The notes beneath the pieces were generated by a model, which saw nothing but the letters and a program-made list of their open reading frames with translations, was not told where the DNA came from and did not search any database. From the NCBI GenBank assembly GCA_041664745.1, contig JBAYKD010000003.1, positions 29,412-93,411 of the forward strand: 64,000 nt of DNA, in the 5' to 3' direction. This DNA is from Minisyncoccota bacterium. Its GTDB lineage: Bacteria; Patescibacteriota; Minisyncoccia; Phycocordibacterales; UBA9973. This document shows, in pieces, positions 7,959-42,913 of the stretch (within the stretch, counting starts at the first letter, position 1; each line of letters opens with the position of its first letter). A program made the position numbers and the translations under genes.

Positions 7959-8035
7959 ATAAAGTCATACTAGCAAAAAAACATATAAATTACTAGTATT
8001 TTTTATTTATTTATTTTCATGCTAAACTATCCTCA

Positions 8036-8905
8036 ATGTCTCACGAGAAAACAGCAATCAGAACCACATACTTCAGCATTATAAGTAATGCACTTTTAGC
8101 TGCCATTAAATGGACGGCTGGGTATTTTGGCAATTCTTATGCCCTTATCGCCGATGCAATAGAATCCACTACTGACATTTTCTCCTCTGCTTTAGTTTTA
8201 TTTGGTATCAAGTATTCGAGTAAGCCCGCTGATAAAAATCACCCATATGGTCATGGTAGAATTGAGCCACTCGTCACTTTTTTGGTTGTAGGATTCCTTA
8301 TGGTCTCTGCAGGCATTATAGCTCGCCAGTCAATTATCAATATTCATACTCCTCATGAACTTCCCCGTGCTTATACTCTCATAATCTTAGCTGGAATAAT
8401 TATTTGGAAAGAAACTTCATATAGACTTGTTGTTAAGAAAAGTAAAGAGACAAAAAGTTCATCACTTAAGGCTGATGCATGGCACCATAGAAGTGATGCG
8501 ATAACTTCTGTAGCAGCATTCATAGGTATCACGATCGCTCTCATTTTAGGGAAAGGATATGAATCTGCCGATGACTGGGCTGCACTTTTCGCATCTGCTT
8601 TTATTTTATATAATTGCTATCTTATATTTAGACCAGCATTAGGAGAGGTTATGGATGAACATACACACGGGGAAGTAGAGTTGAGAGTAAGAGAGATATC
8701 AAAAACAATTTCTGGGGTTCTTGATACTGAAAAATGTTTAATAAGAAAAACTGGCATGAAATACCATGTGGATCTACACATAATAGTCAATAAAGATATC
8801 TCAGTCGAAGAAGGTCACAATATCTCCCATAGAGTTAAAGATAAATTACAAGTAGAAATCCCAGAAATTTCGAATATTCTGATCCATGTTGAACCCAATA
8901 ATTAG
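8036..8905 (+). CDS. Cation diffusion facilitator (CzcD/FieF-type) divalent metal efflux transporter
   Basis: 289 aa with six TM helices, the motif NALLAAIKWTAGYFGNSYALIADAIES, HHRSD, and a C-terminal cytoplasmic domain. Confidence 0.85.
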   Translation: MSHEKTAIRTTYFSIISNALLAAIKWTAGYFGNSYALIADAIESTTDIFSSALVLFGIKYSSKPADKNHPYGHGRIEPLVTFLVVGFLMVSAGIIARQSIINIHTPHELPRAYTLIILAGIIIWKETSYRLVVKKSKETKSSSLKADAWHHRSDAITSVAAFIGITIALILGKGYESADDWAALFASAFILYNCYLIFRPALGEVMDEHTHGEVELRVREISKTISGVLDTEKCLIRKTGMKYHVDLHIIVNKDISVEEGHNISHRVKDKLQVEIPEISNILIHVEPNN

Positions 8906-8950
8906 GCCATTAATTTGCATTTTACCCTAAAATGTAGTAGTCTGTAATAT

Positions 8951-9184
8951 ATGACGATTATTGCTAATATATTACCTTATATACAGATTATACTATCCCT
9001 TATATTAATAGGAGCCATTTTGATGCAACAATCAGACGCAGGCGTAGGAGGAGTATTGGGCGGAGGAGATGGCGGTGGTCTTTATCACACACGTCGTGGA
9101 TTTGAAAAGTTTCTTTTTGTAATGTCTATTACAGTCGCTATTCTTCTGACTCTCTCATCTCTACTTGCAGTATTCATTAAGTAG
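8951..9184 (+). CDS. secG: Preprotein translocase subunit SecG
   Basis: 77 aa with two TM helices separated by a Gly-rich loop (QQSDAGVGGVLGGGDGGG). Confidence 0.7.
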   Translation: MTIIANILPYIQIILSLILIGAILMQQSDAGVGGVLGGGDGGGLYHTRRGFEKFLFVMSITVAILLTLSSLLAVFIK

Positions 9185-9227
9185 TTTTCGAACTAAAAAT
9201 ATTAATCTAACTCTTTAAGAGTGCATT

Positions 9228-11051
9228 ATGCATAAATTTCTCTCATTTATAAAAGAATTTCGTATTCCTAAAAAACAAGAGCTTACCGCTTCATTAGAAT
9301 CCTTCTCTAAAAAAGAATTCTATATTTTCATTGTTGTGGCTTTAGTTGCTTTTGTGGGAATGGTAATAATTCTTGATCAGCTTAACAATAAATTCCTAGT
9401 TGATGTTCCTATTAAGGGTGGATCAACAACTGAAGGGATTATCGGAATGGCAACCCTTGTGAACCCAGTAACAGCTATCTCCGATGCAGATAAAGATTTA
9501 GTTTCTTTAGTTTACAGTGGACTTGTAAGAAGAATGCCTGATGGAAGCTTTATTCCTGACTTAGCCGAGTCATATACTATCTCTCCTGATGGATTAACTT
9601 ATACTTTCATTATTAAGAACAAAGTAACTTTCCATGATGGAGTAGTTGTGACCGCAGACGATGTCATATTCACAATCAACAAAATAAAAGACCAGCTCAT
9701 AAAAAGCCCACGAAGAATAGGCTGGGAAGGAATTAGTGTCGAGAAAATAGATGACAAAACTGTTACATTTAAATTAAAACAGCCATATATCTCCTTCCTA
9801 GACAATATGACACTGGGAATTCTTCCAGAGCACATCTGGCAAAATGTAGAGGATTCAAACTTCAATATCTCCCCTTTTAATATCAAGGCGATAGGATCAG
9901 GCCCATACAAGATCAAATCTGTCTTAAAAAATAAAGATGGCCTGCCACAAGAGTACAATTTAAAAAGCTTTTCAAATTTCACACTTGGAACTCCTAATAT
10001 AGACAATTTAAAAATTATTTCTTACCCAAACGAGAAAGATTTGATGAATGCAATATTGAGCGACTCTGTAAATCAGGCGGGCGGTATAAGTCCTAAAAAT
10101 GCAGAGGAGTTACAAAGAGATTCTCACACTATAAATACAGCATCTACTTCTAGAATCTTTGGATTATTTTATAATAGTAGTAAGAATAAAATCTTCATGG
10201 ATGCGGGTGTAGTCAAAGCTTTCAATCTTGCGTTGGATAGACAAGAGATTGTTGATAAAGTTCTCTACGGCTATGGAACAGTTATAGGAAGCCCTATTCC
10301 AGAAACCATTATTCCAAGCACTAAAAATGCAATTGTAAGTAATGAAGATAATTTTAAGAAAGCCAGCGACCTTCTTGATAAAAGTGGCTGGACAGTAAGA
10401 GATGATGGAATAAGAGCAAAGGGTGGCACAACGATTGTAAATAAAACTGTTGTAACTAAAGCAAAAAATGGTACCAAAAAATCAACCATAGTTCCAACGA
10501 AAGTAAATGGTGGTCCATTAACACAGCTCGCCTTCGCTATAACTACCGGAGACACACCAGAGCTAAGGCAATCAACTGAAATTATCAAAACACAATTAGA
10601 AAAATTAGGAGTCAAAGTAAATACGCAAAAAGTTTATGAGATGGGTCCTTTGAATCAAGTGATTCGTGATCGTGATTATGAAGTTCTATTCTTTGGTCAA
10701 ATAATAAACCATGAATCAGACCTATATTCATTCTGGCATTCTTCCCAGAAGAAAGATCCTGGATTGAATATTTCTATGTACGGTAATGCCAAAGTAGATA
10801 AAATACTTGAAGATGCTCAGAAAACAATTTCTCTAGATGCAAGATTATCTAAATATAAAGACTTTATAAATGAGTTCAATAAAGATCTTCCTGCCTTACT
10901 CATATACTCGCCTAAATACTTATACGCTACATCAAATGAACTTAATAATATAAATCTTAATAGCTTAATAAATCCTTCTGATAGATTTGCATCTATTTAT
11001 ACATGGTATGCAAACAAAGATCACGTATGGAAAATCTTTACCAAACAATAA
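9228..11051 (+). CDS. ABC transporter substrate-binding protein, family 5 (OppA/DppA-like), TM-anchored, no adjacent permease/ATPase
   Basis: 607 aa with an N-terminal TM anchor and SBP_bac_5-like blocks (TFHDGVVVTADDVIFT, GSGPYK). Confidence 0.75.
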   Translation: MHKFLSFIKEFRIPKKQELTASLESFSKKEFYIFIVVALVAFVGMVIILDQLNNKFLVDVPIKGGSTTEGIIGMATLVNPVTAISDADKDLVSLVYSGLVRRMPDGSFIPDLAESYTISPDGLTYTFIIKNKVTFHDGVVVTADDVIFTINKIKDQLIKSPRRIGWEGISVEKIDDKTVTFKLKQPYISFLDNMTLGILPEHIWQNVEDSNFNISPFNIKAIGSGPYKIKSVLKNKDGLPQEYNLKSFSNFTLGTPNIDNLKIISYPNEKDLMNAILSDSVNQAGGISPKNAEELQRDSHTINTASTSRIFGLFYNSSKNKIFMDAGVVKAFNLALDRQEIVDKVLYGYGTVIGSPIPETIIPSTKNAIVSNEDNFKKASDLLDKSGWTVRDDGIRAKGGTTIVNKTVVTKAKNGTKKSTIVPTKVNGGPLTQLAFAITTGDTPELRQSTEIIKTQLEKLGVKVNTQKVYEMGPLNQVIRDRDYEVLFFGQIINHESDLYSFWHSSQKKDPGLNISMYGNAKVDKILEDAQKTISLDARLSKYKDFINEFNKDLPALLIYSPKYLYATSNELNNINLNSLINPSDRFASIYTWYANKDHVWKIFTKQ

Positions 11052-16414: not shown

Positions 16415-16548
16415 GATTAATTCCTCTCCCCCTTACTAAGGGGGAGATGCCGGAGGCAGAAGGGGTCTGACCCCTCCTCAGAGCATTGCCTTGCGAAGTC
16501 TGACCCCTCCCCAACCCTCCCCTTAGTAAGGGGAGGAGGAATTAATTC
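16415..16548. repeat. Full-length GC-rich repeat element with ~30-nt terminal inverted repeats, each end itself a CCCC/GGGG hairpin
   Basis: The left end is GATTAATTCCTCTCCCCCTTACTAAGGGGGAG. The reverse complement of the right end is GAATTAATTCCTCCTCCCCTTACTAAGGGGAG. There is an internal direct repeat GTCTGACCCCTCC x2. About 41 nt of the element recur almost identically at 26444-26484. Confidence 0.75.
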
Positions 16549-19500
16549 TGTGCTGGAACTATCGCTGCATTGTAGGCAGTAATGGCGTCATTGAGGGTTG
16601 TGACTTGGGCATCAATTACATCTTGAGTATCAGTAGTTGCTCCTGTGGCAGCTGCGTTGGCTGTTATGAGAGTAGCGAGTGAGCCGACTATATGCTCGCC
16701 GGGAATTACTGATTCTATAGCACTAGCATCTATAAGTCCTTGAGCTATACCTTTAGCAGTAGTGAGAGCGGAGATGTCGGAAGGTTGATTGTTTGATATT
16801 AATAATGCCATTGCATCATTTAATGCTGCCGTCTTTGCCGTCTTATTTGCTTCTAGTTCCGCCCCGGTTTGTGCAGGAGTTTGTGATTCTACTACTTCTG
16901 GTAGTAATAATGCAGAATCTCTTGCAGGGGTGAATAATAACCAACTATCTGCCGTATAGTCAGCTTCTACTTTAGCAGCTATGGTTGTTTTGGCAGTTGT
17001 TAGATCGGTATCTATTTTTGCTACTCTGGCTGCTTCTATCTCTTCAAGGGTGGGGGTTACTTCATTGCCACCATTATTTCCATCACTGTTGGAATCTATA
17101 ATCAATGCTTTGAGTGACTGTAACTCACTACGATTGATACAGACGGCTTCCTGCCCTGGGTCCGTGAGACAAACTTCGCCAGTAAATATTCTCGTAATCT
17201 TATTCCCTGCATTTGCAAGCCAAGCGGTAAGATTATCTCTCAAAGTATTCACTATCGCCTGCCCCGCTCCATCCACTTCAAATTTATTTATACCTTCTAA
17301 TTTTAGATTGAGTTCTTTGATAGCATTCACTGATGCAGCAAGTATCGTTGTAGTATTTACTTGTCTGTTGCCGGAAGGATTAATGTTTACAGCTTCTGGA
17401 ATTGCAGTTTCCACATTTTGAGCAATGAATCCTGAGTAGTCTATACCTCCATCATATAATCCTGAATCTGTTTTCCAAGAGTATGTTTGTGGATTGATTT
17501 GCATGATAGCGTTTAGACCTAGTGTAAAATCTTCCTTTATATCCTTTAGACGTGCATCGGATGTACAACTCATGGTGCCTGCACCGTTGGTTTGAATACC
17601 TCCGCAGGAAACGAGATTAGATATACCGACGCTTCCATCATAACTAATACGCATTCTTTCTGATGTTCCATAAGAATCTCCTGTCGCAAAAATTAAATTA
17701 CCCTTATTCCAATTAGAATCTCCTCCAGCACCTTCTAATATTCCATAAATAGAAGCATAAGAAGCATTATATGTTCCAGATGAAGTCTTTGAGCTAAACG
17801 CAATAATAGGTGAATAAACACCTGGAGCATAAGTATTATTTGCTAATACAAGACCAGCTGTTCCGTTTGTTGTTGTAGCTAGTGAATGACTTGCTATAAA
17901 TGCTGGTGAAGTTGCTACACTACTACCATTAATATAAAATAGGGCACTTCCAGAATAAGTTCCTAATGAAGTTACTGGCCCAGTAGAACTAATAGATGAA
18001 GCATTAATTGTACCGTTCACATCTAATTTTGCCGCCGGGGTTGTTGTCCCGATACCGACGGAGCCGGTGCCTAATACGCTTACCCATTCGTGAGCCACAT
18101 CTGTTCCTGCGACACGGATACCGAATCTATTATCAGCAGCATTATAAGCCGAACCGATATACGCATTATTATTTCCATTTACGTTAAATCCCCAAAAAGT
18201 ATTTTCAGTTGAAGCACCAATTTTTCCTGCTCTCAAGAAAACTGTATCGGAACCTTCTTGAGAAAGAATATCAAGTTTCGCCCCTGGCCCCGTCGTCCCG
18301 ATGCCGACGTTGCCGTCGTTTTTAATTGTCATTCTTATACTAGGTGTAAATTCTGTATTAGCAGTAGCTGCTGCGGCATCAGCATAAAAATTTATACCAT
18401 CTATATAGCTAAGTATTATTCCTCTTGAACCAAAACTTGCATGAGTATTACCCCATTTTAATTTAAGAGCATTGCTTTCGTAACCAGAAGAATAATAAGA
18501 ATTATGAGTAATGAAAGCATCTCCAGCTGCGTCTTGCTGATCTAAATTCAAACCATAACTCGCACCAGCATGAATCATCCCTGCTACATCCAACTTTGCA
18601 CTTGGTGTTACTGTCCCGATTCCTACATTACCGAGATTTATATTAAATGGTGGAGTTCCTCCTTGATCAACATTTTGAATTTGAAATAACCCTGGTGATC
18701 CACCTGAAGAAGCAATTGTCCAATCAGCATTAGCAGAACCTGTATCTAATTCAATACCTGCAGTCCAAGAAGTATTTCCAGATTTTACAAGAATTTGATT
18801 TCCATTACTACCCTCTACTTGCAACAACTTTCCAGGTGCGGTTGTCCCAATACCCACATTTCCGCCACTTGGTAATAGAACAAGTTCGTCCCCGTCACTC
18901 CATCCTTCTCTGTGAATTGCCATCATTGTTCTATCTGCTCCTGCCCCACCATTCATATTAGTAGTCTTCATATTAAATCTTTCTGTATGGTCATATGAAC
19001 TTGCAACACCAGCAAGATTTTTATCTTCTCCAAAAATTGTTAAGTATCCTCCACCATAAGCACCCGTTTGAATTTTTAATCCAGTATTGTCTGTTGCACG
19101 ATAAATATCCAATAAGCCACTTGGCCCAGTTGTCCCGATGCCGACGTTACCGTTTGTTTGAAGTGTCAATAAAGTAGAGGTTTCTAAAAGCCCATCTGCA
19201 TTTGCAGAAAACTTAAATTTATCTGAATCAGAATTATCTACTCCAAAGTTCCAAACTGAAGCTCCACCATCATCCATTAAAATTTTTGTATCTCCACCAT
19301 TAGGCCCAGTTACCATTCTTATTCTAGCGTGAGAAGCTGTATTTGTATTATCAGTATTTTCTAAATTAAAAGAAGCAGCAGTTCCTGCGGTTGCTTCTTT
19401 TACATCTAGTTTCCAAAGAGGATTCGTCGTCCCGATACCGACATTGCCGTTTGATCTTAAAATAGTTAAAGCGGAAGAACTTGTACCATAGTTATATAAT

Positions 19501-22322
19501 TGCCAATCAGAATTTCCTGCTGTAGCACCAGAACCAAGATACCAATCATTCACTCCATTGGTTTGCCATCTGATAGCATTCTCTACTGTATTTGTAACAC
19601 TACGATTAAGGTAAATATTTGCTTGTCCTGTACCATCTCCTATAGTAACATTCCCCGCCACACTTAATTTTGTTCCTGGTCCCGTCGTCCCGATGCCGAC
19701 GCTTGTTCCATTATCGTAAATCAAAGAATTTCCAAATGCACTTGTCCCTGTAAATTTTGGAATATAGTTTGTTGTTCCTACTCCTGTGGTAATAGAAATA
19801 GGAGTTATTGCCAAATCATTAGTAACGCCAGATGATGGTTTTGGATCCATTGTTACAGCAGTAACAGTATTTAGTCCATTATAATTTTGATACGCCTCAC
19901 TTGTAATATAAGCTTCAATGGTAGAATAAATAGATAACCCAGATACTGATACATATAGATATCCATTGTAATTAAATAAATTTACAGGATATGCCACACC
20001 GTTTGCAGTAGTATAATTCATAGAAATAACTCCTGTATTTAATAATGTACCAGAAATATTAATAGTACTATTTCTACCGCCGTTAAAATCTACTATCTTA
20101 ATAGTTCCATGAAATAGTGAATAATTATTTGCAGCAATACTTGTCGCAATCAAGGCTGTAGTCGAAGAACTGTTATAAATTGATACTGGATTTAATGCAG
20201 ATGAAGCGAAAGCAGAAGCATGCTGGCCGTCCAACATATCAGCATTTAGGTTTGTAACTGCTGTTGTAGAAGTGACAGATAAAGGAGAAGTACCAGTAGC
20301 AATATTTGAGAATAATTGGGTACCAGTAATTGTTCCGTCCGCTAAAATATTATTGTCCCCCGCATCAGACTCACCTCCAACATGAAGCCCTCCATTTATT
20401 GCAAGTTTTGAAAGTGGTGCTGTTGTTCCAATACCGAAGTTGCCAGTGCTTGTGATTCTCATTCTTTCATTTGAAAAAGTCATTCCTCCAGTTGCAAAAA
20501 TTATTGGTGCAACAGCAGAAGTAGCAACTACAAGTCCCCCCGTATCACTTTCTGTTAATACACCAGTGGCAGGAACATTGTTAAAGTTTGTATTACCAGT
20601 AGCCGAGCCATTCTGAACAAAAGAAAATGTTCCTGTGTCTCCAACGGCTTGAAGTTGAGGACGACTAGTCGTAAGTAAATTTCCATCTACTTGTATCACA
20701 GTATTCCCGGCACTTGAAACAACTAATTGGCGTGTTGGCCCCGTTGTGCCGATTCCAACGTTGCCACTACTATCCATTGTTATGCCTGTCGCTGAACCAA
20801 TAGAAGTTCCAACGGACCAGTAAGATTTTGTACCATCTGTACCAATGGAAGAAACAGCACTACCTCCTAAAGTAAGAGGTACATTATCCATCAAATTAAG
20901 TCCCCAAGATGTTTCCGATGCGACAAGATATCCTCTTAGATAAGTATTACCATTTACATCAAGAATATATCCTGCCCCTGGTGCTGTCGTCCCTACTCCC
21001 ACTCTATGAGTTCCAGAATCAACAAATAAAGAATTGGCATCAACTGTCAGATTATGAATGCCAAGATCTACATTTGTTGTACCTCCTGTGTAAGGAATAT
21101 ATCCTGCGGCAGTCGCATAATAGTTTCCATGTTGCCCATCTAGAAGATCAGCATTTAAGTTCGTATTGAGAGTTGTAGAAGTGACAGCGAAAGGAGAAGT
21201 GCCAGTAGCGAGAGTAGATGTAAGTTGATTGTTCATTCCGATAGTTGTAATGCCAGAAAGTGCTCCTGCGGAAGTCGCTTTGAATCCTGAAGAATTAATT
21301 GTGAGAGTATCATCCACTCCATTACCGATTGTAATTATTTTGGCATTAACATTTGTTCCAATTAAAATACTTCCGGTAGTTCCTGAGTCTAAAGTTAAAG
21401 CTCCAGTTGTTCCTGAATTAATAGTTAATGCTCCACTATCTGCAATATTGTTTGTAGTAAATGTTTGTGTTCCGATTACTGTCCCTGTGATAAATGTCCC
21501 TATACCGGCGTTACTGATTCTAGTAACTCCATTTAGAGAAAGTAGACCAGCAGTGATGGCGACATCACCAGCAGTCGCAGTAATATTTCCAGTTGTTGCC
21601 GTCAATCCCAAAGTAGCTGTGATAAGTCCTGAAATTGTAGGAGTGGCTGTCCATGCAGTTCCTGTGACTGTTAAGTTACCACCGAGTGATGTGAGGTTAG
21701 CACCTGATACTGTGAATGTATTATCTAGGGATGTTGCTCCGTGGAGAGTGAGAAGACCAGGAGTTGTGACTGAACCTATGGTGTTGATGGAAGATGCACC
21801 AGAGCCAAAAGTGTTGGTAGAATTGATAGCAGTAGATATAGTAGCATTGCCGGTGGATGTGATGCCAGTGGAAGCAACAATAGCTCCAGTGGAATTGACT
21901 TGGAACAAATCGCCATCACCGACAGTAAGGAGAGAGGCGGGAGTAGTGTCACCAATGCCGACAGAGCCGGCGAAATATGATTGCCCTCCGGCAGAATAAA
22001 TAGAATAATTATTATTAGCACCCTTGGTCATATTGGTAATATAGAGACCATACTGATTCGTTATTGTTCCTGTTCCTGTAGCATTCATAACATATAGACC
22101 ATAGCGATTAGATAATGTGCCACTACCATTCCAATTCGTAGAGCCAACGAATGAAGCTCCTTGATTGATAGTCCCAGTCGCTCCAGCGACGCTGGCAATT
22201 TTCCCCCATACTCCAACGAGAGGAATATGATTCCCGTCTCCATTCCAATTTTGGGTGTTTGTCGCTCCTACTTGAGCATTTGAATATGTGCCCCAAGCAT
22301 AACCAGTGAAAGACTGGAAGTA
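16542..22322 (-). CDS. Giant tail-fibre-like surface protein, C-terminal reading frame (track ORF 16542..22088; frame is open upstream to 22322)
   Basis: About 12 copies of G(N/S)VGIGTT(G/A)PxxKL(D/S)V, two NLNAD(L/M)LDGQH motifs, a Peptidase_S74-like block (SDARLKDIKEDF...GFIAQNVE...AIKEL) and FIVAR-like C-terminal repeats. Residues upstream of the annotated Met continue the YGLY repeat pattern (RYGLYVMNATGTG...QYGLYITNM). Confidence 0.8.
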   Translation of the reverse strand, partial: YFQSFTGYAWGTYSNAQVGATNTQNWNGDGNHIPLVGVWGKIASVAGATGTINQGASFVGSTNWNGSGTLSNRYGLYVMNATGTGTITNQYGLYITNMTKGANNNYSIYSAGGQSYFAGSVGIGDTTPASLLTVGDGDLFQVNSTGAIVASTGITSTGNATISTAINSTNTFGSGASSINTIGSVTTPGLLTLHGATSLDNTFTVSGANLTSLGGNLTVTGTAWTATPTISGLITATLGLTATTGNITATAGDVAITAGLLSLNGVTRISNAGIGTFITGTVIGTQTFTTNNIADSGALTINSGTTGALTLDSGTTGSILIGTNVNAKIITIGNGVDDTLTINSSGFKATSAGALSGITTIGMNNQLTSTLATGTSPFAVTSTTLNTNLNADLLDGQHGNYYATAAGYIPYTGGTTNVDLGIHNLTVDANSLFVDSGTHRVGVGTTAPGAGYILDVNGNTYLRGYLVASETSWGLNLMDNVPLTLGGSAVSSIGTDGTKSYWSVGTSIGSATGITMDSSGNVGIGTTGPTRQLVVSSAGNTVIQVDGNLLTTSRPQLQAVGDTGTFSFVQNGSATGNTNFNNVPATGVLTESDTGGLVVATSAVAPIIFATGGMTFSNERMRITSTGNFGIGTTAPLSKLAINGGLHVGGESDAGDNNILADGTITGTQLFSNIATGTSPLSVTSTTAVTNLNADMLDGQHASAFASSALNPVSIYNSSSTTALIATSIAANNYSLFHGTIKIVDFNGGRNSTINISGTLLNTGVISMNYTTANGVAYPVNLFNYNGYLYVSVSGLSIYSTIEAYITSEAYQNYNGLNTVTAVTMDPKPSSGVTNDLAITPISITTGVGTTNYIPKFTGTSAFGNSLIYDNGTSVGIGTTGPGTKLSVAGNVTIGDGTGQANIYLNRSVTNTVENAIRWQTNGVNDWYLGSGATAGNSDWQLYNYGTSSSALTILRSNGNVGIGTTNPLWKLDVKEATAGTAASFNLENTDNTNTASHARIRMVTGPNGGDTKILMDDGGASVWNFGVDNSDSDKFKFSANADGLLETSTLLTLQTNGNVGIGTTGPSGLLDIYRATDNTGLKIQTGAYGGGYLTIFGEDKNLAGVASSYDHTERFNMKTTNMNGGAGADRTMMAIHREGWSDGDELVLLPSGGNVGIGTTAPGKLLQVEGSNGNQILVKSGNTSWTAGIELDTGSANADWTIASSGGSPGLFQIQNVDQGGTPPFNINLGNVGIGTVTPSAKLDVAGMIHAGASYGLNLDQQDAAGDAFITHNSYYSSGYESNALKLKWGNTHASFGSRGIILSYIDGINFYADAAAATANTEFTPSIRMTIKNDGNVGIGTTGPGAKLDILSQEGSDTVFLRAGKIGASTENTFWGFNVNGNNNAYIGSAYNAADNRFGIRVAGTDVAHEWVSVLGTGSVGIGTTTPAAKLDVNGTINASSISSTGPVTSLGTYSGSALFYINGSSVATSPAFIASHSLATTTNGTAGLVLANNTYAPGVYSPIIAFSSKTSSGTYNASYASIYGILEGAGGDSNWNKGNLIFATGDSYGTSERMRISYDGSVGISNLVSCGGIQTNGAGTMSCTSDARLKDIKEDFTLGLNAIMQINPQTYSWKTDSGLYDGGIDYSGFIAQNVETAIPEAVNINPSGNRQVNTTTILAASVNAIKELNLKLEGINKFEVDGAGQAIVNTLRDNLTAWLANAGNKITRIFTGEVCLTDPGQEAVCINRSELQSLKALIIDSNSDGNNGGNEVTPTLEEIEAARVAKIDTDLTTAKTTIAAKVEADYTADSWLLFTPARDSALLLPEVVESQTPAQTGAELEANKTAKTAALNDAMALLISNNQPSDISALTTAKGIAQGLIDASAIESVIPGEHIVGSLATLITANAAATGATTDTQDVIDAQVTTLNDAITAYNAAIVPAQN
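17286..17561 (-). other. Peptidase S74-like intramolecular chaperone/autoprocessing domain inside the giant ORF
   Basis: SDARLKDIKEDFTLGLNAIMQINPQTYSWKTD...IDYSGFIAQNVETAIPEAV...TTTILAASVNAIKELNLKLE matches the remembered PF13884 pattern SDxRxKxNI...(F/W)xxK...GFIAQE...P....(I/L)xELxxK. Confidence 0.7.
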
Positions 22323-34525: not shown

Positions 34526-37500
34526 CTATAAAAGACTAATCTTAAATATTAATTCCCCAATTTTTATTTCTGTGCCCTCTACTTCTTTTATTTGTATTTC
34601 TTTGGCACTGACTGTCTTTATGAGTTCTGTCTTAAATTTATTTATTAATTTCTGCCCATTTACATTTGTACTGATAACAAGAGTAACAACATCATTAGGA
34701 TTTAATCCTTTATTCTTTCTCTCATCTTGAATCGCTCGAATAAGCTCACGATACTGACCTTCAAAACGAAGATCCTCTGTAATATGAGTATCGAGCTCTA
34801 TTTTTTGTTCTTCTCCTTCTATAAATTTAACATTCTTTATGTTTAATTCATCCTTCAATATTTCAATGTACTCATCCTTAATCTTATACTTAGTTGCTAT
34901 TAATTTATTTAATGGCTGACGTACTGGTATTCCAACTTTTTGTCTGGCTTGTAATCCAAGAGTGACAACTTCACGAACTTCTTTCATTTCTTTAATAATT
35001 TCAGTATTTATATTTTTAACTTCAATATTTGCGACAAAATCTGTGAGATGAATACTAATAGAATCTCCATCCAATCTTAATTTCTTCCATACATCTTCGG
35101 CTATAAATGGCATAAACGGAGCAAAAAGTTTTGCTGTCGTTTTCAATACAAAATACAAAGTACTCTTGGCCTCTTTGTCTCCATCCTTTATTCGATCCCT
35201 TGAACGACGTAAATACCACGTTGAAAGATCTTCAATAAATAATTCATATGGTTTGGTGGATAAAGATAAATCATATATCTCCATACCATCTTTCATTTCA
35301 TTAATAAATTGATATAGTCGAGCAATTATCCACTGATCTAAAATGTTTGTCGATGCTTTATATTCCATACCTTCAATATCATGATCACGATAAAGTTCGT
35401 AAAAAGCTACTACGTTGTCAAAACGACTTATAATCTTGCTTGAAACTTCTTGAACTAATTTCTCAGAGAAATTTACATCTTCACCTTTCATTAAAGTACT
35501 AGACATCAGATAAAAACGAAGAGCATCAACTCCATACTTGTTGAACAAAAGCCAAGGGTCTGGAAAATTCATTTTTGATTTCGCCATTTTACTTCCATCT
35601 TCGGCTAAAACTGTACCGGTGGTCACTATATTCTCAAATGGTGCTTTACCAAATAAAATAGTAGAAATAACATGTGTATAGTAAAACCAAGTTCTCGTCT
35701 GAGCAATATACTCAGCTACAAATCCTCCAGGGAAATTGTCTTTCTGCCAATTCGGATTTTCAAATGGGAAGTGATCTTGAGCGAAAGGCATTGACCCTGA
35801 CTCAAACCAACAGTCAATAACTTCTGGAATCCTTTTGTATTCTTCTCCATCCTCACCAACTAAAATAATCGAATCTATATAAGGACGATGAAGATCTACC
35901 TCGTAATTACTATTGTGTGGAAGTGGAACAAAAGGAAGTGAGACTGCTTCTGCATTATCTAAATAATTATAACTCTTCTCGGGACCTACTAGATCAAGAG
36001 TTTTCTCTATACTTAAATTATTTACGCCAGCATACATGAGCCATACGGGACTTCCGTGCGTAATAATCAAAACATTTTTACCGGAATAACTTTTCTCAAT
36101 ATCATACAAGAAGCTCATAGATCTGCGTCGAACTTTTTCATATGATTCATTACCAATTGGTGCTTTGTAAAAATTTTCTACTGTTTTTGGAAAATCATTA
36201 TGATACTCTAACCATTTCTTGCCTTCATACATAGGAACTGACATTTCATGAAGACGATCATCAAAAATAATTTTCTCTTTATCGAAGCCAATAGCCTTCG
36301 CTACTAATTCTGCAGTCTCTTTTGTTCTCACAAAAGGAGAAGTGATTATCACATCAATATTTTCATTTTTTAATCCCTCCCCTGCTTTCTCTGCTTGGCT
36401 GCGTCCAAGTTCTGTAAGATTATCGTCATTATTTACTGTATCACTTATCAAACCTTTTACATTACACTCCGTCTCTCCATGACGCATCATGAAATATTTG
36501 TTACCAGACTTTTTTACTTTTGATTTTAAATCTTCTAGTGAACTTACCATCATCACCTTGCCTTCTTTTGACTTCCAAATAGGAAGAGGACTCGCCCAAT
36601 AACGGTTACGAGATATGGTCCAGTCTGGTGCCGACTCCATAGTATTCTTGAAGCGTCCTTCTTTTAAGTGACCTGGAATCCAATTCATATCTTCACCTTT
36701 TAAAAGTAAATCATTCTTTACTTTTTGAATATTCACAAACCAAGATGGAAGTGCATAATAAAGAAGAGGAGTCTCACATCTGTAACAATGAGGGTATGAG
36801 TGAATTATTTTCTCTTTAGCGAAAAGGATACCTTTTTGAGCAAGATACTTAATGATCAAGACGTCTGTCGATTGATGATCCTCCTTTGGTTTAACTTTCA
36901 CATTTGGGAAATCAACTATCTCTTTTGAGAAATCTCCATTGGGTTCTACATGACGAATAAAAGGAATGTTGTGTTCTTTGGCCAAATTCATATCATCTTC
37001 ACCAAAAGCTGGAGCTTCATGTGCAATACCTGTACCCTTATCTATGGTTACAAAATCTGCATGCCAAATTTTCCAAATATTTTCCTTATTTGGCATATCT
37101 ACATTCTTGTAGTAATCAAATATTGGCTCATATGAAAGGCCAACGAGTTCATTACCTTTAAGTTCTTTTACTTCTACTTGTGTTTCATTGTATCCATTTA
37201 ATAAATATTTTTTATTCTTCAATACACCTGATCCTTCTTCAATACCATCAGGGTGAGAGATAAAATGATTAAAATAATCTTTACTGAATAAATAACTTTC
37301 GCCATTTTTAAATATTACATTTTTACTATCTAATATAGTCATCTGGATGTACTCAATATCATTATTTACCGCAATCGCCGTATTTCCTGGAAGAGTCCAA
37401 GGCGTTGTCGTCCAAGCAAGTAAATATGTATCTTTATATTTTTCATCTAAAATTTTAAACTTCACATAGACAGAAATATCTGTAATATCTTTATAACTAT

Positions 37501-38104
37501 TATCCATAGCTATTTCGGAATTTGCTATCGGAGTCTCACAACGTGGACAATAAGCAAGAACTCTCACTCCTTCATAGAGTAATCCCTTCTTGTTCATCTC
37601 ACCTAGCGCCCACCAGACACTCTCTATGAAAGTGTTATCCATCGTTTTATATGAATTATCAAAATCTACCCAGCGTCCCATACGATCGACTGTCTTCTTC
37701 CATTCATTTACATAAGTAAGAACTTTACTGCGAGCATGATCGGTAAATTTATCTATACCGAGAGCTTCAATAGCTTTCTTGCCTGAAATTCCTAAATCTT
37801 TTTCAACAATATTTTCGATCGGTAATCCATGACAATCCCAGCCCCAACGACGAGGTACGGTATAGCCACTCATGGTCTTGTACCTACCAATAACATCTTT
37901 CACAGTACTACCGAGAATGTGCCCATAGTGAGGAAGCCCTGAAGCAAAAGGAGGTCCATCATAAAAAACATACTTTCCTTTTGGTGCATCTTTCTCTAGA
38001 CTTTTTTTGAAGACGTCATTCTCTTTCCAGAATTGCAAAATAGCTTCTTCTCGGAGTGCTAATTGCGACTTCACTATTTCATTTGCTTTCTTTTTATCTT
38101 CCAT
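34526..38104 (-). CDS. ileS: Isoleucine--tRNA ligase carrying an inserted histidine-phosphatase (PGAM-like) domain
   Basis: HIGH-type motif (PHYGHILG), CP1 editing motif WTTTPWTLPGNTA and KMAKSKMN. The 1192-aa length is explained by a ~200-aa RHG...H domain between IWKSKEGKVMMV and DLHRPYID. Confidence 0.9.
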   Translation of the reverse strand: MEDKKKANEIVKSQLALREEAILQFWKENDVFKKSLEKDAPKGKYVFYDGPPFASGLPHYGHILGSTVKDVIGRYKTMSGYTVPRRWGWDCHGLPIENIVEKDLGISGKKAIEALGIDKFTDHARSKVLTYVNEWKKTVDRMGRWVDFDNSYKTMDNTFIESVWWALGEMNKKGLLYEGVRVLAYCPRCETPIANSEIAMDNSYKDITDISVYVKFKILDEKYKDTYLLAWTTTPWTLPGNTAIAVNNDIEYIQMTILDSKNVIFKNGESYLFSKDYFNHFISHPDGIEEGSGVLKNKKYLLNGYNETQVEVKELKGNELVGLSYEPIFDYYKNVDMPNKENIWKIWHADFVTIDKGTGIAHEAPAFGEDDMNLAKEHNIPFIRHVEPNGDFSKEIVDFPNVKVKPKEDHQSTDVLIIKYLAQKGILFAKEKIIHSYPHCYRCETPLLYYALPSWFVNIQKVKNDLLLKGEDMNWIPGHLKEGRFKNTMESAPDWTISRNRYWASPLPIWKSKEGKVMMVSSLEDLKSKVKKSGNKYFMMRHGETECNVKGLISDTVNNDDNLTELGRSQAEKAGEGLKNENIDVIITSPFVRTKETAELVAKAIGFDKEKIIFDDRLHEMSVPMYEGKKWLEYHNDFPKTVENFYKAPIGNESYEKVRRRSMSFLYDIEKSYSGKNVLIITHGSPVWLMYAGVNNLSIEKTLDLVGPEKSYNYLDNAEAVSLPFVPLPHNSNYEVDLHRPYIDSIILVGEDGEEYKRIPEVIDCWFESGSMPFAQDHFPFENPNWQKDNFPGGFVAEYIAQTRTWFYYTHVISTILFGKAPFENIVTTGTVLAEDGSKMAKSKMNFPDPWLLFNKYGVDALRFYLMSSTLMKGEDVNFSEKLVQEVSSKIISRFDNVVAFYELYRDHDIEGMEYKASTNILDQWIIARLYQFINEMKDGMEIYDLSLSTKPYELFIEDLSTWYLRRSRDRIKDGDKEAKSTLYFVLKTTAKLFAPFMPFIAEDVWKKLRLDGDSISIHLTDFVANIEVKNINTEIIKEMKEVREVVTLGLQARQKVGIPVRQPLNKLIATKYKIKDEYIEILKDELNIKNVKFIEGEEQKIELDTHITEDLRFEGQYRELIRAIQDERKNKGLNPNDVVTLVISTNVNGQKLINKFKTELIKTVSAKEIQIKEVEGTEIKIGELIFKISLL
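35906..36502 (-). other. Histidine phosphatase superfamily (branch 1, PGAM/cofactor-dependent mutase-like) domain inserted in IleRS
   Basis: YFMMRHGETECN (RHG), SPFVRTKETA (second Arg), HEMSVPMYEGK (Glu) and LIITHGSPV (second His), covering aa ~535-733 of the ORF. Confidence 0.75.
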
Positions 38105-38150
38105 ATATTTAAATTTTTATAACTAATAATATTTTTCTATATTTTCTCTA

Positions 38151-38184
38151 GTGGCATATCTACGCCATGGCGTAGATATGCCAC
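38151..38184. repeat. 34-nt perfect palindrome in the ileS 5' UTR
   Basis: GTGGCATATCTACGCCATGGCGTAGATATGCCAC equals its own reverse complement (15-bp stem, 4-nt loop). It lies between the T-box terminator and the ileS ATG. Confidence 0.7.
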
Positions 38185-38190
38185 TTCAAT

Positions 38191-38394
38191 AAAAAAACTC
38201 GTCCACGTACAACAATTACAATAATTGCTATACAAGGACGAGCTTCTCTCGTGGTACCACCTCGTTTACTTCTCATTTAAAGGGTTCTACTTCGTCGTGA
38301 GGTCTTGCCTCACGATGTTTCTTCCCAATGCTCCGAGGCGATAACCTCTTCACTGCATATACTTGAATAATAACACCAAAATAAAAATTTGCAA
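38191..38394 (-). promoter_or_regulatory. T-box riboswitch leader of ileS (promoter, short Stem I region, T-box/antiterminator, terminator)
   Basis: On the minus strand, TTGCAA-16 nt-TATTAT is followed by ...AACGAGGUGGUACCACGAGAGAAGCUCGUCC. The core GGUGGUACC matches the conserved T-box sequence. CUCGUCC can pair either with upstream ACGAG or with downstream GGACGAG, which is followed by U7 (a long terminator stem). AUC (Ile) triplets lie at 38340-38342 and 38314-38316. Confidence 0.75.
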
Positions 38395-38514
38395 GAAAAT
38401 TAATCTGGGTGTAGTATCTAATCGAATTGCACTTTTTAGGACATTACATTTAGATGGGTGTCTATAAGATTATTTTTCAAAAATTGGTTTAATGCGCGCT
38501 TATATAAACTAGTC

Positions 38515-38795
38515 AGAAAAAAGTAATCTTTTAAAGGAATCACACGTTGGAACAACACAGCCAAAATGCTGAAAAGCAGAAGAACGTTGGTGTGCCGAGG
38601 TGGTTAGGTGTCAAACTGAAGGATCAGGAAATACGTGCCAGCAGACGCGGTTATACGTATACCTAATTCAGGTTCAGCAATTCTAGCTTTGAAAGGGAAA
38701 CATATAGCGAAAGCTAGACCAAGTGGCCAAGAAGTATCCCACTCAAAGTGAAAAGACCCTGTCTGTTCTAACGAGCAGCAGGGTTCTTTTATTTT
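38515..38795 (+). ncRNA. Unclassified structured RNA containing a 16S rRNA helix-18/530-loop look-alike; 5' end uncertain
   Basis: No ORF is present. Stems include CTAGCTTT(38683-90)/AAAGCTAG(38710-17), ATACGT/ACGTAT around GTGCCAGCAGACGCGGTTATAC (38635-38656), and AGTGG/CCACT. The region ends in a strong intrinsic terminator, ACCCTGTCTG...CAGCAGGGT followed by TCTTTTATTTTTT. Confidence 0.55.
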
Positions 38796-40466
38796 TTATA
38801 TGACTTCATTCTGATAACACTTTTCACAATAAATTATTTCAGGACGTTCTGGTGCATAAGATGTCTCAAATTCATTTGTACACCCTTCTTTCATACAAGA
38901 ACGATGCCAGAGTTTATTTGGTCCACGAGATTTTATTCTTCTATAGTGTCTACAATCAGGACAAAGTCGAGGAAGTGGAACATCTAGTTTTTTGTAAAAT
39001 AAAAATTCATTAGGAATTACTTTATAATTCTTGCTACAAGATTCACAGACATAAATTTCTTGTGTTGCATCAAAATCAATCTCAGAGAAACTTTCTGGTA
39101 TTTCTTCTATCTTCTTCGTTTCTTTATCATATGTCCCTCTTTCTGTATCTTCCCACTTAAAACCTTGAGATAAAGCTTTTTCTTTAGATAATATAAACTG
39201 CTCATAAGCTGGAGTCTCGTTGTAACCAAAGCAAGATAAGTCTTTATTAAAGAATTCTCCATACCGTCCACTTTCTCTTAATTCATTTTTTATTTTATTT
39301 AAAATCTCTTCATACTCTTTCTTTTCATATTGTTTATTTAAAATACAATAATTCTTTTTCCTTAAACCTACACAACCAAAACAATTATTGGAATTGAAAC
39401 AATACATAGAATATTCTACAAATGAACAAGTCCAACAAAGAGCATCACAAATTAGATTTGAATTATCAATACCTGTATTTATAGAATTATAAATAAGGGA
39501 AGCATTTCTACCCGCAGTATCACAGTCCATAGTATCTTTAGCATTACGCCATATATGTACCCCATATTTATTATCTTCAGCCTCATAACAGTGGAAACAT
39601 GATCTACAATTTTTTACATTTTTCATATAAGAACCTGTAGAATTTACAGCTTTCATTATTTCTGCAAATTTACGAGGTTGCTTCTTCAAAAAATCTTCAT
39701 ATTTTTCTCTAAAGTTTTTAATTCCTGAAGAAGTATTAATCGCTAATTCTTTTTTAATTTTTTCATATTCTTCTTTTGAATATTTTTCATTAAAAATATA
39801 ATTACTTTTATCCCGCAAATTTATACATCCAATACAATCCGTGCAACCTTTGCAATCGGTTAAAAAGTAACTTGTCGTACAATCATGACATCCTTTACTA
39901 TATAAAAGCTTATAGGAATTGTAACAATCATCAGATTCATAAGTCAGCTCACATTTTGAAGCAAAAGAAGTATCTACTACATCCCTACATTCTTGAATCC
40001 AATAAGAGTGAATAGAATCTTCGTTGTTTGATGATTCTATAATAAAATAACAATTCTTATTATCAGCAGAGATATTGGTATAATCACTCCCAGGACTTCG
40101 CATATAGATAAGTGAAACCTTAGGGACAGATTGCCACAACTTTTTAAATTGTTCAAAAAATGAAATCTCCGGATTATAATCTAAGCCATAATCTTCCCCT
40201 CCCCAATCATCAGCAAACCAACAATCATAACACCAAATCTTAAATGGCTTGTTTTCTGAATACATTGATATTACATCTTTATCACATTTATCACATTTCC
40301 TTTTATAAAAAGTTCTTTCATTACGAAAACTTAAGCGAAGTTGAGCCCTACAATCTGGACATATGGAAGGAGCATTTATTCCTATCTTTTCATAAAAACC
40401 AAAATCATCAGATTCTATAATAAAGTCTTTTTTACAATTCTGACATATTTTGGTTTGAGAATTCAT
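38796..40466 (-). CDS. Cys-rich hypothetical protein with terminal zinc-ribbon modules and an internal duplicated Cys-cluster domain
   Basis: The N-terminal CQNCKKDFIIESDDFGFYEKIGINAPSICPDCRAQLR is mirrored by the C-terminal CESCSKNYKVIPNEFLFYKKLDVPLPRLCPDCRHYRR. The internal repeat CHDC...CKGCTDCIGCINLRDKSNYIFNEKYSKEEYEKI pairs with CWTC...CFNSNNCFGCVGLRKKNYCILNKQYEKKEYEEI. Confidence 0.6.
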   Translation of the reverse strand: MNSQTKICQNCKKDFIIESDDFGFYEKIGINAPSICPDCRAQLRLSFRNERTFYKRKCDKCDKDVISMYSENKPFKIWCYDCWFADDWGGEDYGLDYNPEISFFEQFKKLWQSVPKVSLIYMRSPGSDYTNISADNKNCYFIIESSNNEDSIHSYWIQECRDVVDTSFASKCELTYESDDCYNSYKLLYSKGCHDCTTSYFLTDCKGCTDCIGCINLRDKSNYIFNEKYSKEEYEKIKKELAINTSSGIKNFREKYEDFLKKQPRKFAEIMKAVNSTGSYMKNVKNCRSCFHCYEAEDNKYGVHIWRNAKDTMDCDTAGRNASLIYNSINTGIDNSNLICDALCWTCSFVEYSMYCFNSNNCFGCVGLRKKNYCILNKQYEKKEYEEILNKIKNELRESGRYGEFFNKDLSCFGYNETPAYEQFILSKEKALSQGFKWEDTERGTYDKETKKIEEIPESFSEIDFDATQEIYVCESCSKNYKVIPNEFLFYKKLDVPLPRLCPDCRHYRRIKSRGPNKLWHRSCMKEGCTNEFETSYAPERPEIIYCEKCYQNEVI

Positions 40467-40469
40467 AAT

Positions 40470-40742
40470 CTATTTATTCTTTATCCAATACTTTTTTACA
40501 ATAGGTATTGATTGAGTAGAAAGAATGAAACCAAGTACAGGAATCAAAGCACTTAAATATGGTTTAGACACTCCAATACTATATAGAACAAAAATAGCTG
40601 CAATATAAGTAATAATGCTTATAGATAAAATTCTGATAAAACTTGTCTCCCAAGCCTTATCAAGCTCTACCCTTTTATTTCTCTCCTCTATTTTATTTAA
40701 TCTTTCTTCTACTGTATCCATAATATTCTTTATACTAATCAT
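40470..40742 (-). CDS. Small membrane protein (coiled-coil N-terminus + 2 TM helices), hypothetical
   Basis: 90 aa, tightly packed between argS and the Cys-rich gene. Confidence 0.4.
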   Translation of the reverse strand: MISIKNIMDTVEERLNKIEERNKRVELDKAWETSFIRILSISIITYIAAIFVLYSIGVSKPYLSALIPVLGFILSTQSIPIVKKYWIKNK

Positions 40743-40770
40743 TAAAACCTAACTAATATAAACTAATTCT

Positions 40771-42484: not shown

Positions 42485-42913
42485 TTATTTATGTCCTGTT
42501 GTTCCAAACCCTCCACGATTACTACTACTCATAATATCAACTTCCTCCCATTCTGCAATATCAACCCTTACAAAGACTCCCTGTCCTAAACGTTCTCCTT
42601 TTTCTATTGTAACATCATTATCTGTCATATTATAAACCTGTAATAATATCTCATCAGATTCACCATGATAATCATTGTCGATATATCCTACACTAACAAA
42701 GAGACCCTTCTTTTTCAAAGTACTAGATCTGTCTTTAATCTCTAACATATATCCCTTTGGAATCTCAATGATCACATTGGTTGGTAGGCGCTCTAATGTC
42801 TTAGGCAAGATAACAGCATCAATACGAGAATACAAATCAAAAGCTACCGCCCCTAGAGTATGATATTCTGGCAATGGAAAACTTTTATCTATTCTTTTAA
42901 TTTTGATTTTCAT
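42485..42913 (-). CDS. dut: dUTP diphosphatase
   Basis: 142 aa with a trimeric dUTPase-like sequence and C-terminal motif V (SSNRGGFGTTG). Confidence 0.8.
   Translation of the reverse strand: MKIKIKRIDKSFPLPEYHTLGAVAFDLYSRIDAVILPKTLERLPTNVIIEIPKGYMLEIKDRSSTLKKKGLFVSVGYIDNDYHGESDEILLQVYNMTDNDVTIEKGERLGQGVFVRVDIAEWEEVDIMSSSNRGGFGTTGHK

Follow-up and report, generated by a model that had tools for sequence, protein, structure and literature searches.

Two kinds of described protein module are among the closest to the subject of this study. The Pfam families PF13451 (zf_Tbcl) and PF23477 (zf_Tbcl_2), 'probable treble clef' zinc fingers to which no function has been assigned, span only ~40 residues each. 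A narrow beta-helix with a cysteine ladder is found in the Tenebrio molitor antifreeze protein, whose 12-residue coils follow the pattern TCTxSxxCxxAx. Here we analyse a 556-residue protein that shares sequence features with both, encoded on the minus strand (positions 38796-40466) of a 64,000-nucleotide stretch of Minisyncoccota bacterium DNA (contig JBAYKD010000003.1, positions 29,412 to 93,411, of GenBank assembly GCA_041664745.1); we refer to this stretch as the window. Unlike the Pfam fingers, the protein has a 370-residue core without a Pfam counterpart. Its gene is the slow-evolving core member of a very large, uncharacterised family of ~560-residue proteins centred on the Patescibacteria (Candidate Phyla Radiation, CPR). 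Literature searches turned up no account of this family or of PF13451/PF23477.

A conserved gene with a nested architecture

Comparison of the open reading frame (ORF) with six orthologues (73-83% amino acid identity) gave ratios of nonsynonymous to synonymous substitution rates (dN/dS) of 0.06-0.14, with dS near saturation. The ORF at 38796-40466 is a real gene under strong purifying selection. An identical protein is on public record as MFA6386569.1, 'hypothetical protein WCW04_02265 [Candidatus Paceibacterota bacterium]'. The protein contains 38 cysteines (6.8%) and only 6 histidines. A first-pass annotation, made from the sequence alone, had described a Cys-rich protein at these coordinates with CxxC and CxxxxC pairs, and coordinates and counts agree: there are 13 non-overlapping CxxC pairs and one Cx4C pair, and when overlapping CxxC runs are included such pairs hold 29 of the 38 cysteines. 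We also found neither a transmembrane helix nor a signal peptide, as that annotation had stated; the Kyte-Doolittle mean over 19 residues peaks at 1.05. The whole protein is acidic (isoelectric point, pI, 5.7), with one basic finger at residues 468-518. It is soluble and pseudo-two-fold.

Residues 7-83 are homologous to residues 473-551 (BLASTP E = 3e-16, 30% identity), and comparison of the terminal modules as family profiles with hhalign gave a probability of 99.5% (E = 4e-22). This bears out the homology proposed earlier between the N- and C-terminal ~70 residues. The central repeats align over residues 138-243 and 287-396 by BLASTP (E = 1e-9, 29% identity) and over residues 156-242 and 306-393 by hhalign (probability 98.5%, E = 3.5e-15). 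The central tandem duplication that had been noticed is therefore significant by both methods, and it extends beyond the stretch originally quoted. Because both the terminal and the central duplications are significant, the nested A-B-B'-A' order is real. The coding sequence and its predicted parts are as follows, where AF2 is AlphaFold2 and pLDDT the predicted local distance difference test score.

38796..40466, minus strand: complete coding sequence, 556 amino acids plus stop, with an ATG start and the stop codon at 38796-38798.
40311..40466, minus strand: ZnA1, residues 1-52, a putative treble-clef-type Cys4 finger (C8, C11, C36, C39) followed by a basic helix, CRAQLRLSFRN (zf_Tbcl match of 21.8 bits; AF2 pLDDT ~95).
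40167..40310, minus strand: ZnB1, residues 53-100, a putative second Cys4 ribbon (C58, C61, C79, C82; from co-occurrence, conservation and the AF2 model).
40059..40166, minus strand: conserved helical linker, residues 101-136, with the motif PFFEQF..L...VPK (conservation, AF2 model).
39780..40058, minus strand: predicted beta-solenoid repeat 1, residues 137-229, in which Cys and Ser form a ladder with a repeat unit of 12 residues (DSSP strands, hydrophobicity periodicity).
39636..39779, minus strand: predicted helical hairpin following repeat 1, residues 230-277 (AF2 model).
39324..39635, minus strand: predicted beta-solenoid repeat 2, residues 278-381, homologous to repeat 1 (BLASTP, hhalign, AF2 model, periodicity).
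39066..39323, minus strand: helix and highly conserved acidic linker, residues 382-467 (conservation, AF2 model).
38913..39065, minus strand: ZnA2, residues 468-518, a copy of ZnA1 (C474, C477, C502, C505) with a basic helix and a net charge of +6 (homology, conservation, co-occurrence).
38799..38912, minus strand: ZnB2, residues 519-556, a copy of ZnB1 (C524, C529, C547, C550), its cysteines 97-99% conserved.

Both repeats close with a conserved motif, C205-x2-C208-x2-C211-x2-C214..LR.K..x(I/F)FN in repeat 1 and C362-x2-C365..LRKK.YC374ILNK.Y in repeat 2, and the acidic linker carries GEYGEFFP...S.FGYNET...FPL.KEEA...GFKWED.

Predicted zinc sites at the two ends

To compare the cysteines with one another, we computed their co-occurrence (the phi coefficient) over 343 family sequences. 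The 16 terminal cysteines form four tetrads that are present on an all-or-none basis. Those of ZnA1 are conserved in 91-99% of relatives and co-occur with phi values of 0.57-0.86. In ZnB1 phi is 0.99 among C61, C79 and C82 and 0.52-0.54 between these and C58, and the site is lost as a unit in about one third of family members. The corresponding values are 0.82-0.95 for C474/C477/C502/C505 and 0.67-1.0 for C524/C529/C547/C550. Because they are lost or kept together as tetrads, the terminal cysteines are predicted to be metal sites, and the pattern is consistent with four Cys4 zinc sites, both ends having a treble-clef finger and a ribbon.

The likeness to zf_Tbcl lies in these modules. ZnA1 and ZnA2 both show the CxxC-x24-CPxCR pattern, and the Cys4 site characteristic of the family would be supplied by C8/C11/C36/C39 and C474/C477/C502/C505, each kept or lost together (phi 0.57-0.95) and each a predicted metal site. 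PF13451 matches the protein over two stretches with 21.8 bits (E = 1.8e-4), below its gathering cut-off of 24, and several orthologues carry precomputed PF13451 hits, some of them above that cut-off. By these scores the protein is a borderline zf_Tbcl relative. PF23477 (CxxC...YCxxC) can be likened to ZnB: with a gathering threshold of 27 bits, it reaches 17.6 bits in relative P0344, is faint in one paralogue and has no match in the 556-residue protein at E <= 10. In a PDB profile search, the C-terminal ribbon W-x-R-x-C...C...YC-x-x-CY (residues ~512-549) also aligned with the second LIM finger of the CRP family (E = 1e-3). We rejected LIM membership, as only one finger is matched, the two sites lie 18 residues apart rather than 2, and all ligands are Cys, where LIM domains combine C2HC and C4 sites.

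A cysteine and serine ladder in the core

The 22 central cysteines follow another pattern. They show no co-loss in the 343 sequences (maximum phi 0.42), and many of the positions are Cys in only 7-63% of sequences, with Ser or Val instead. AlphaFold2 modelled the core poorly from 36 close sequences (pLDDT 67.7), whereas 139 diverse sequences gave a pLDDT of 90 and a predicted template modelling score (pTM) of 0.92. In the latter model the end modules are finger-plus-helix units (pLDDT 93-98), residues 139-228 and 282-379 form runs of very short strands with a period of 6 or 3 according to DSSP, and helices 231-260 and 382-399 come after the two strand runs. The first solenoid coils have pLDDT values of 71-78. 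Family hydrophobicity has power at period 3 (13.9 in repeat 1, 5.5 in repeat 2) and period 12 (5.2 and 5.6), and an 18-residue period was not seen in either repeat (0.6 and 0.3). Stacking the sequence as hexads places Cys, Ser or small residues at positions 1 and 4, and Asn, Asp or Gly at positions 3 and 6.

On this model, the centre is predicted to be a duplicated narrow beta-solenoid, with Cys, Ser or some other small residue facing the interior at every third position. Because the central cysteines lack co-loss, exchange with Ser or Val and follow periods of 3 and 12, they would mostly serve in core packing, as the inward ladder of the solenoid, rather than as zinc knuckles. In other words, the 'zinc-ribbon-like modules' of the first-pass annotation describe the termini, with their four Cys4 tetrads and sub-threshold zf_Tbcl matches, and do not describe the centre. 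The 'string of zinc ribbons' gives way to a picture of four zinc fingers that would clamp a duplicated beta-solenoid, an architecture that predicts ~4 Zn and ~22 free thiols per chain.

In sequence, the core resembles the Tenebrio antifreeze protein in its 12-residue unit, in the small residue (Cys, Ser, Ala) at every third position, predicted to point inward, and in the Asn/Asp at the corners. It differs in that Cys exchanges with Ser, so that there is no obligatory disulfide ladder, in being cytoplasmic and in lacking a Thr ice-binding face. The solenoid here is also duplicated and capped by helices and zinc fingers. We found no sequence or Foldseek match to any Cys-ladder beta-helix structure, and homology is unsupported.

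Foldseek on an AlphaFold model, a check that the earlier annotation had proposed, returned no characterised fold for the core. The best PDB match of the pLDDT-90 model had E = 0.88, with TM-scores of at most 0.22, and the noise consisted mostly of left-handed beta-helix enzymes. Matches in BFVD were limited to phage 'zinc-ribbon domain proteins' of ~40 residues, superposed on a finger with a root mean square deviation (rmsd) of 0.8. Across PDB and BFVD there was no match with E < 0.02, only finger-sized ones.

The identity of the noise entries raises the question of whether the protein is a beta-helix enzyme of the acyltransferase or gamma-carbonic-anhydrase type, in which the two solenoids would mimic an acyl-CoA-binding subunit interface. 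LpxA, LpxD, GlmU, PglD and gamma-carbonic anhydrase dominate the Foldseek noise list; hexapeptide-repeat acyltransferases and gamma-carbonic anhydrases are its commonest entries, and their local strand geometry is matched by the period-6 strands that DSSP assigns to the model. Fusions to GNAT acetyltransferase domains (see below) connect the family to CoA chemistry, and His and Glu residues are invariant in the orthogroup. Counter to this, every Foldseek match has E >= 0.88 and TM-score <= 0.22, no Hexapep match appears in Pfam, the 18-residue periodicity is missing and the His residues are unconserved across the family. We consider such an enzyme improbable. Membership of the left-handed beta-helix class was itself rejected on these scores, together with rmsd values above 10 A.

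Some central cysteines are better conserved than the rest: C205/C208/C211/C214 are Cys in 79-94% of sequences and C365/C374 in 88-94%, at the last coil of each repeat. With central cysteines such as C205-x2-C208-x2-C211-x2-C214 as ligands, the protein could be imagined as a redox, Fe-S or metal-buffering protein. Its high Cys content, the 85-94% conservation of C205/C208/C211/C365/C374, a CutA1 gene next to the family in 9 loci and a weak Fer4 match in one of 19 members point in that direction. However, the central cysteines lack tetrad co-variation and most are interchangeable with Ser or Val, the motif does not have the ferredoxin form CxxCxxCxxxCP, and there are many conserved non-Cys residues, unlike in a simple metal sink. 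This role seems very improbable. A ferredoxin-type 4Fe-4S site in particular was rejected: the run is CxxCxxCxxC without Pro, the single Fer4 match has E = 0.37, and no co-loss is seen. The string CxxxCxxC, which the first-pass annotation had reported as absent, does occur at C340-C344-C347 but is not a radical-SAM motif. Only 11%, 35% and 28% of relatives, respectively, have Cys at the three positions, and there is no Pfam match, so radical SAM was rejected.

Other sequence searches gave a similar result. Pfam, NCBIfam, PADLOC and PHROGs scans yielded nothing on the core (0 PADLOC families; PHROGs matches of unknown function only, E >= 0.009), and no curated family covers residues ~100-470, in keeping with the earlier failure to recognise the family. 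Searches of PDB sequences, whether with the single protein, a family profile or a repeat-1 profile, found only weak LIM-finger and TBCC-motif matches. The latter reflect a likeness to TBCC/RP2/C-CAP proteins in the last coil, where both human TBCC (2yuh) and RP2 can be aligned to the motif S-[VY]-F-L-x-D-C-x-x-C-...-C-x-x-L-R. Homology to TBCC/RP2 was rejected (hmmsearch E = 0.3; hhalign probability 1.4% against RP2; no Pfam TBCC and no Foldseek match). The protein fits none of the characterised families tested.

Tandem arrays with a putative shared scaffold and variable first solenoid coils

We compared the gene with 85 related loci, which share ancestry and in a few cases duplicate a contig already included. 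In 60 of them, 2-7 family genes lie within 6 kb, almost all co-oriented and sometimes filling an entire 13.7-kb stretch. Pairwise identity is 49-71% within the orthogroup of the gene (82 sequences), and the other copies are 30-46% identical to each other; the profile search meant to gather paralogues mostly returned the gene's own orthogroup. For paralogue pairs from one locus, identity is mostly 31-48% (5th-95th percentile), with a maximum of 57.6%, which marks the duplications as old.

The window holds a single family copy. In the closest relatives, L004, L007, L009 and L012, a paralogue of the 579-residue class lies between the arginyl-tRNA synthetase (ArgRS) gene, plus a 90-residue ORF where present, and the orthologue (6227-7966 in L004, 4249-5988 in L009 and 4498-6246 in L012; 29-33% identical), at the place that corresponds to 40467-40770 of the window. 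This ~579-residue paralogue is absent from the window and from L010, and array size therefore varies among near relatives. On a 1.39-Mb contig (L092, 1-17674), five family copies occur in 17.7 kb among two TrmB-type regulators; arrays of the family thus occur beyond the Paceibacteria loci.

The orthogroup of the gene is more conserved than the adjacent ArgRS and isoleucyl-tRNA synthetase (IleRS) in the relatives compared. The protein is 84% identical in L004, against 76% for ArgRS, and 58% identical in L040, against 28% for ArgRS and 37% for IleRS.

Within the orthogroup, 36 positions are invariant yet matched in at most 35% of paralogues, and they are concentrated in residues 134-191 and 292-345. 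Solenoid 1 contains twelve (E144, S145, S146, N147, N148, Y155, W156, Q158, S167, D179, D180, K191), with A134 and D135 just ahead of it, and solenoid 2 contains ten (H292, Y294, H304, W306, R307, A309, T317, R320, N330, W345). The first coils of repeat 1 carry the orthogroup-specific ESSNNE, W156 and Q158, and those of repeat 2 carry H292, H304, W306, R307, T317 and R320. ZnA1 and ZnB2 have no orthogroup-specific positions and are family-universal. Different residues are conserved at the same positions in other subfamilies. Such a pattern would be expected of a shared scaffold or docking part combined with a subfamily-specific recognition or catalytic surface.

Distribution, fusions and recurrent neighbours of the family

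An HMMER scan of 1.84 billion cluster representatives retrieved 3,786 clusters at 50% identity with E <= 1e-3, of which 1,475 reach E <= 1e-30, and a word-indexed search gave more than 6,000 matches. The best 120 of these are all full-length proteins of 550-600 residues, 56-88% identical, named 'hypothetical' or 'zinc-ribbon domain containing protein' and assigned to Nomura-, Jorgensen- and Liptonbacteria, Minisyncoccia or 'Patescibacteria group'; the best relatives are annotated as Candidatus Nomurabacteria. GTDB species genomes contributed 80 loci, nearly all with Patescibacteria or 'uncultured bacterium' titles and one with a Burkholderiales label. A search from a divergent relative also found Gracilibacteria and Peregrinibacteria members.

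Fused forms occur on contigs unlike those of CPR, with POR, histidine kinases, a type III secretion system/flagellar-type ATPase and an acetyl-CoA synthetase-type (AMP-binding) enzyme. In nine clusters (P0243, P0297-P0304) the family member is fused at its N-terminus to a GNAT acetyltransferase domain. P0243, whose first zinc site is degenerate, shares 55-62% identity with the other eight, and GNAT fusions lie at about 8001-10196 in both L088 and L090. One cluster (P0311; L091, 3687-6185) has an N-terminal inositol-monophosphatase-family (IMPase) domain. From these fusions it is clear that the family domain serves as a module beside small catalytic domains.

The fusions and the local gene order bear on one alternative, an RNA- or tRNA-binding or modifying translation factor, in line with a guess in the first-pass annotation. 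Its fingers would grip RNA, and a base would be read or modified in its central pocket. The der (EngA) stop is overlapped by one GNAT fusion, after cysteine-desulfurase (Aminotran_5), MnmA-type and UPF0004/radical-SAM genes and RNase III, and the IMPase-fused relative adjoins a SpoU RNA methylase gene. The treble-clef helices are basic (R40/R44/R48 in the N-terminal finger, R506/R510 in the C-terminal finger of net charge +6), and conservation is extreme, comparable to or above that of aminoacyl-tRNA synthetase genes. However, the der/MnmA context is missing around another GNAT fusion, whose surroundings are unrelated, and we rejected it as a conserved context. The synthetase surroundings are likewise unconserved. 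Among the 85 loci GluRS is a neighbour in 8, ArgRS in 6 and IleRS in 5, roughly chance level by a rough estimate, and we set this linkage aside as a functional clue. The protein is acidic overall, and arrays of up to 7 paralogues have no obvious RNA counterpart. A translation factor of this kind is unlikely.

The recurrent neighbour is instead a soluble VirD4/TrwB/TraG-like ATPase, with 34 genes in 30 of the 85 loci; 15 of these genes lie no more than 100 nt from a family gene (examples of the ATPases are L001 7727-10027, L022 7735-10818 and L003 3757-5202). At ~2 such ATPases per genome, about 2 neighbours of this type would be expected by chance in 85 loci, as a rough estimate. The one long-form ATPase scanned carries PF23477 zf_Tbcl_2, and several long forms have a long, disordered, low-complexity tail that ends in a conserved 'KEVPEDxLRKxLE' motif. 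Short forms (~481 residues) are accompanied, as in L003, by a DUF8128 membrane protein, a 180-residue protein and CutA1. One long-form ATPase also matches the PADLOC models mad8 and HerA. Orphan homologues of type IV coupling proteins (T4CPs) are numerous in Patescibacteria, with 5,713 in 2,918 genomes, mostly distant from virB4 (PMC12102498).

Because of this neighbourhood, the family could be viewed as substrates or effectors of the orphan VirD4/TraG-like coupling ATPases, with the arrays as a diversified exported repertoire of an episymbiont. Arrays of old, fast-diverging paralogues do adjoin T4CP-like ATPases in about a third of the loci, and the C-terminal module is basic. Arguing against export, the orthogroup is among the most conserved proteins of these genomes, unlike effectors; the inspected ATPases lack an N-terminal transmembrane segment, as read from their sequences, and such ATPases are mostly far from virB4 (PMC12102498). 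Four predicted zinc sites and a rigid fold (pTM 0.92) would also make poor secretion substrates. The family is essentially absent from the phage and viral contigs searched, with no tblastn match in 50,697 phage records and one contig-end fragment in IMG/VR. On these results and the PADLOC and PHROGs scans, membership of a known anti-phage defence or phage protein family was rejected as well. We give this explanation little probability.

A tentative model of function

The explanation that we tentatively favour, while holding it to be far from certain, is a zinc-clamped, pseudo-dimeric solenoid with a subfamily-specific ligand or catalytic site, whose fingers would dock a shared partner; such a protein could act as a ligand-specific adaptor or an enzyme scaffold. 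The four finger modules, conserved across paralogues, would be the common part that clamps the fold and docks a shared macromolecular partner. The leading candidates for that partner are nucleic acid and the orphan VirD4/TraG-like ATPases, which have a related finger of their own and are encoded by adjoining genes in many genomes. The first coils of both solenoids, with polar and subfamily-invariant Glu, Ser, Asn, His, Trp and Arg residues, could form the ligand-recognition or catalytic site. A tandem array would then place modules of different specificity on one scaffold, and the window would encode the conserved core member only.

Several points weigh against this model. The pocket idea rests on conservation patterns and on a model of moderate confidence in its first coils (pLDDT 71-78), and it takes for granted both that the specificity residues cluster in space and how the fingers are arranged. 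A metal or Fe-S site at C205/C208/C211/C214 and C365/C374 is still conceivable. An acidic protein (pI 5.7) is unfavourable for general nucleic-acid binding. With regard to the ATPases, no VirD4-like ATPase lies anywhere in the 64-kb window, and the shared ancestry of the 85 loci, with their few duplicates, means that the ATPase enrichment is overstated.

Local gene order and other features of the window

The gene follows the ArgRS gene and a 90-residue ORF with a transmembrane segment, the order given by the first-pass annotation, which the ORF coordinates show to be correct; 3 nt separate the 90-residue ORF from the gene. Two features flank the gene directly.

40470..40742, minus strand: 90-residue ORF with a single transmembrane segment, 3 nt upstream of the start of the gene, kept in four close relatives only.
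38745..38795, no strand assigned: GC-rich hairpin between an A-tract and a U-tract (free energy -25.5 kcal/mol, z -7.0).

ORFs 62-82% identical to the 90-residue ORF were found only in L009, L010, L012 and L047, and it has a weak YukC-like Pfam hit (E = 7e-4). Present in only 4 of 85 loci, it was rejected as a conserved partner and is probably outside the function.

The U-tract of the hairpin overlaps the stop codon of the gene, in agreement with the overlap of stop and terminator noted earlier, and the hairpin is likely a bidirectional intrinsic terminator that ends the transcription unit. On the plus strand, the ~370 nt between the stop and the ileS promoter (38430-38795) end in this bidirectional terminator and include 'gtgccagcagacgcggttatacg', which resembles the 16S helix-18/530-loop sequence and had been called an 'h18-mimic'. 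Rfam gave no match to this segment, and the closest related loci lack a counterpart.

On the minus strand, ileS is preceded by a promoter-like site (38394-38367) and a T-box-like leader (38231-38362), the latter scoring 38.6 bits (E = 7e-7) against an Rfam gathering score of 93. The T-box region 38114-38429 is conserved at 67-94% in L004, L007, L009 and L010. Because ileS has its own promoter-like site and T-box-like leader, it appears not to be co-transcribed with the gene. The aminoacyl-tRNA synthetase/nucleotide-metabolism operon that had been proposed does not hold: it is local synteny only, with synthetases at chance-like frequency in the 85 loci and ileS under its own promoter-like site.

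The IleRS itself (34526-38104, minus strand; 1,192 residues) contains a complete histidine-phosphatase domain (PF00300, residues 538-713, E = 1e-36) between segments of its catalytic core, as does its orthologue in L004. The ArgRS ORF, with a GTG start in a mechanical ORF list that takes the first start after a stop, overlaps the end of the upstream dUTPase-like ORF by 32 nt (42485-42516). Most ORFs from about 33.5 kb to 64 kb of the window are on the minus strand. An ORF of 1,848 residues at 16542-22088 (minus strand), rich in Gly, Thr and Ser and with many 'GIGTT'-type repeats, looks like a giant surface or fibre protein.

Implications for CPR biology

CPR genomes are tiny, yet some give at least 10 kb to arrays of 560-residue genes. 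One copy is kept more conserved than the adjoining aminoacyl-tRNA synthetases, which makes the family a strong candidate for a lineage-defining, unannotated function. The orphan VirD4-like ATPase neighbours, the GNAT and IMPase fusions and the putative specificity surface offer experimental handles on that function. A broader possibility, which we put forward as doubtful, is that this undescribed, Patescibacteria-centred family represents a new fold class, a double solenoid with a Cys/Ser ladder. Its arrays may then be ligand-specific adaptors or enzymes that work with orphan VirD4/TraG-like ATPases, as part of a lineage-specific machinery that would have no described counterpart.

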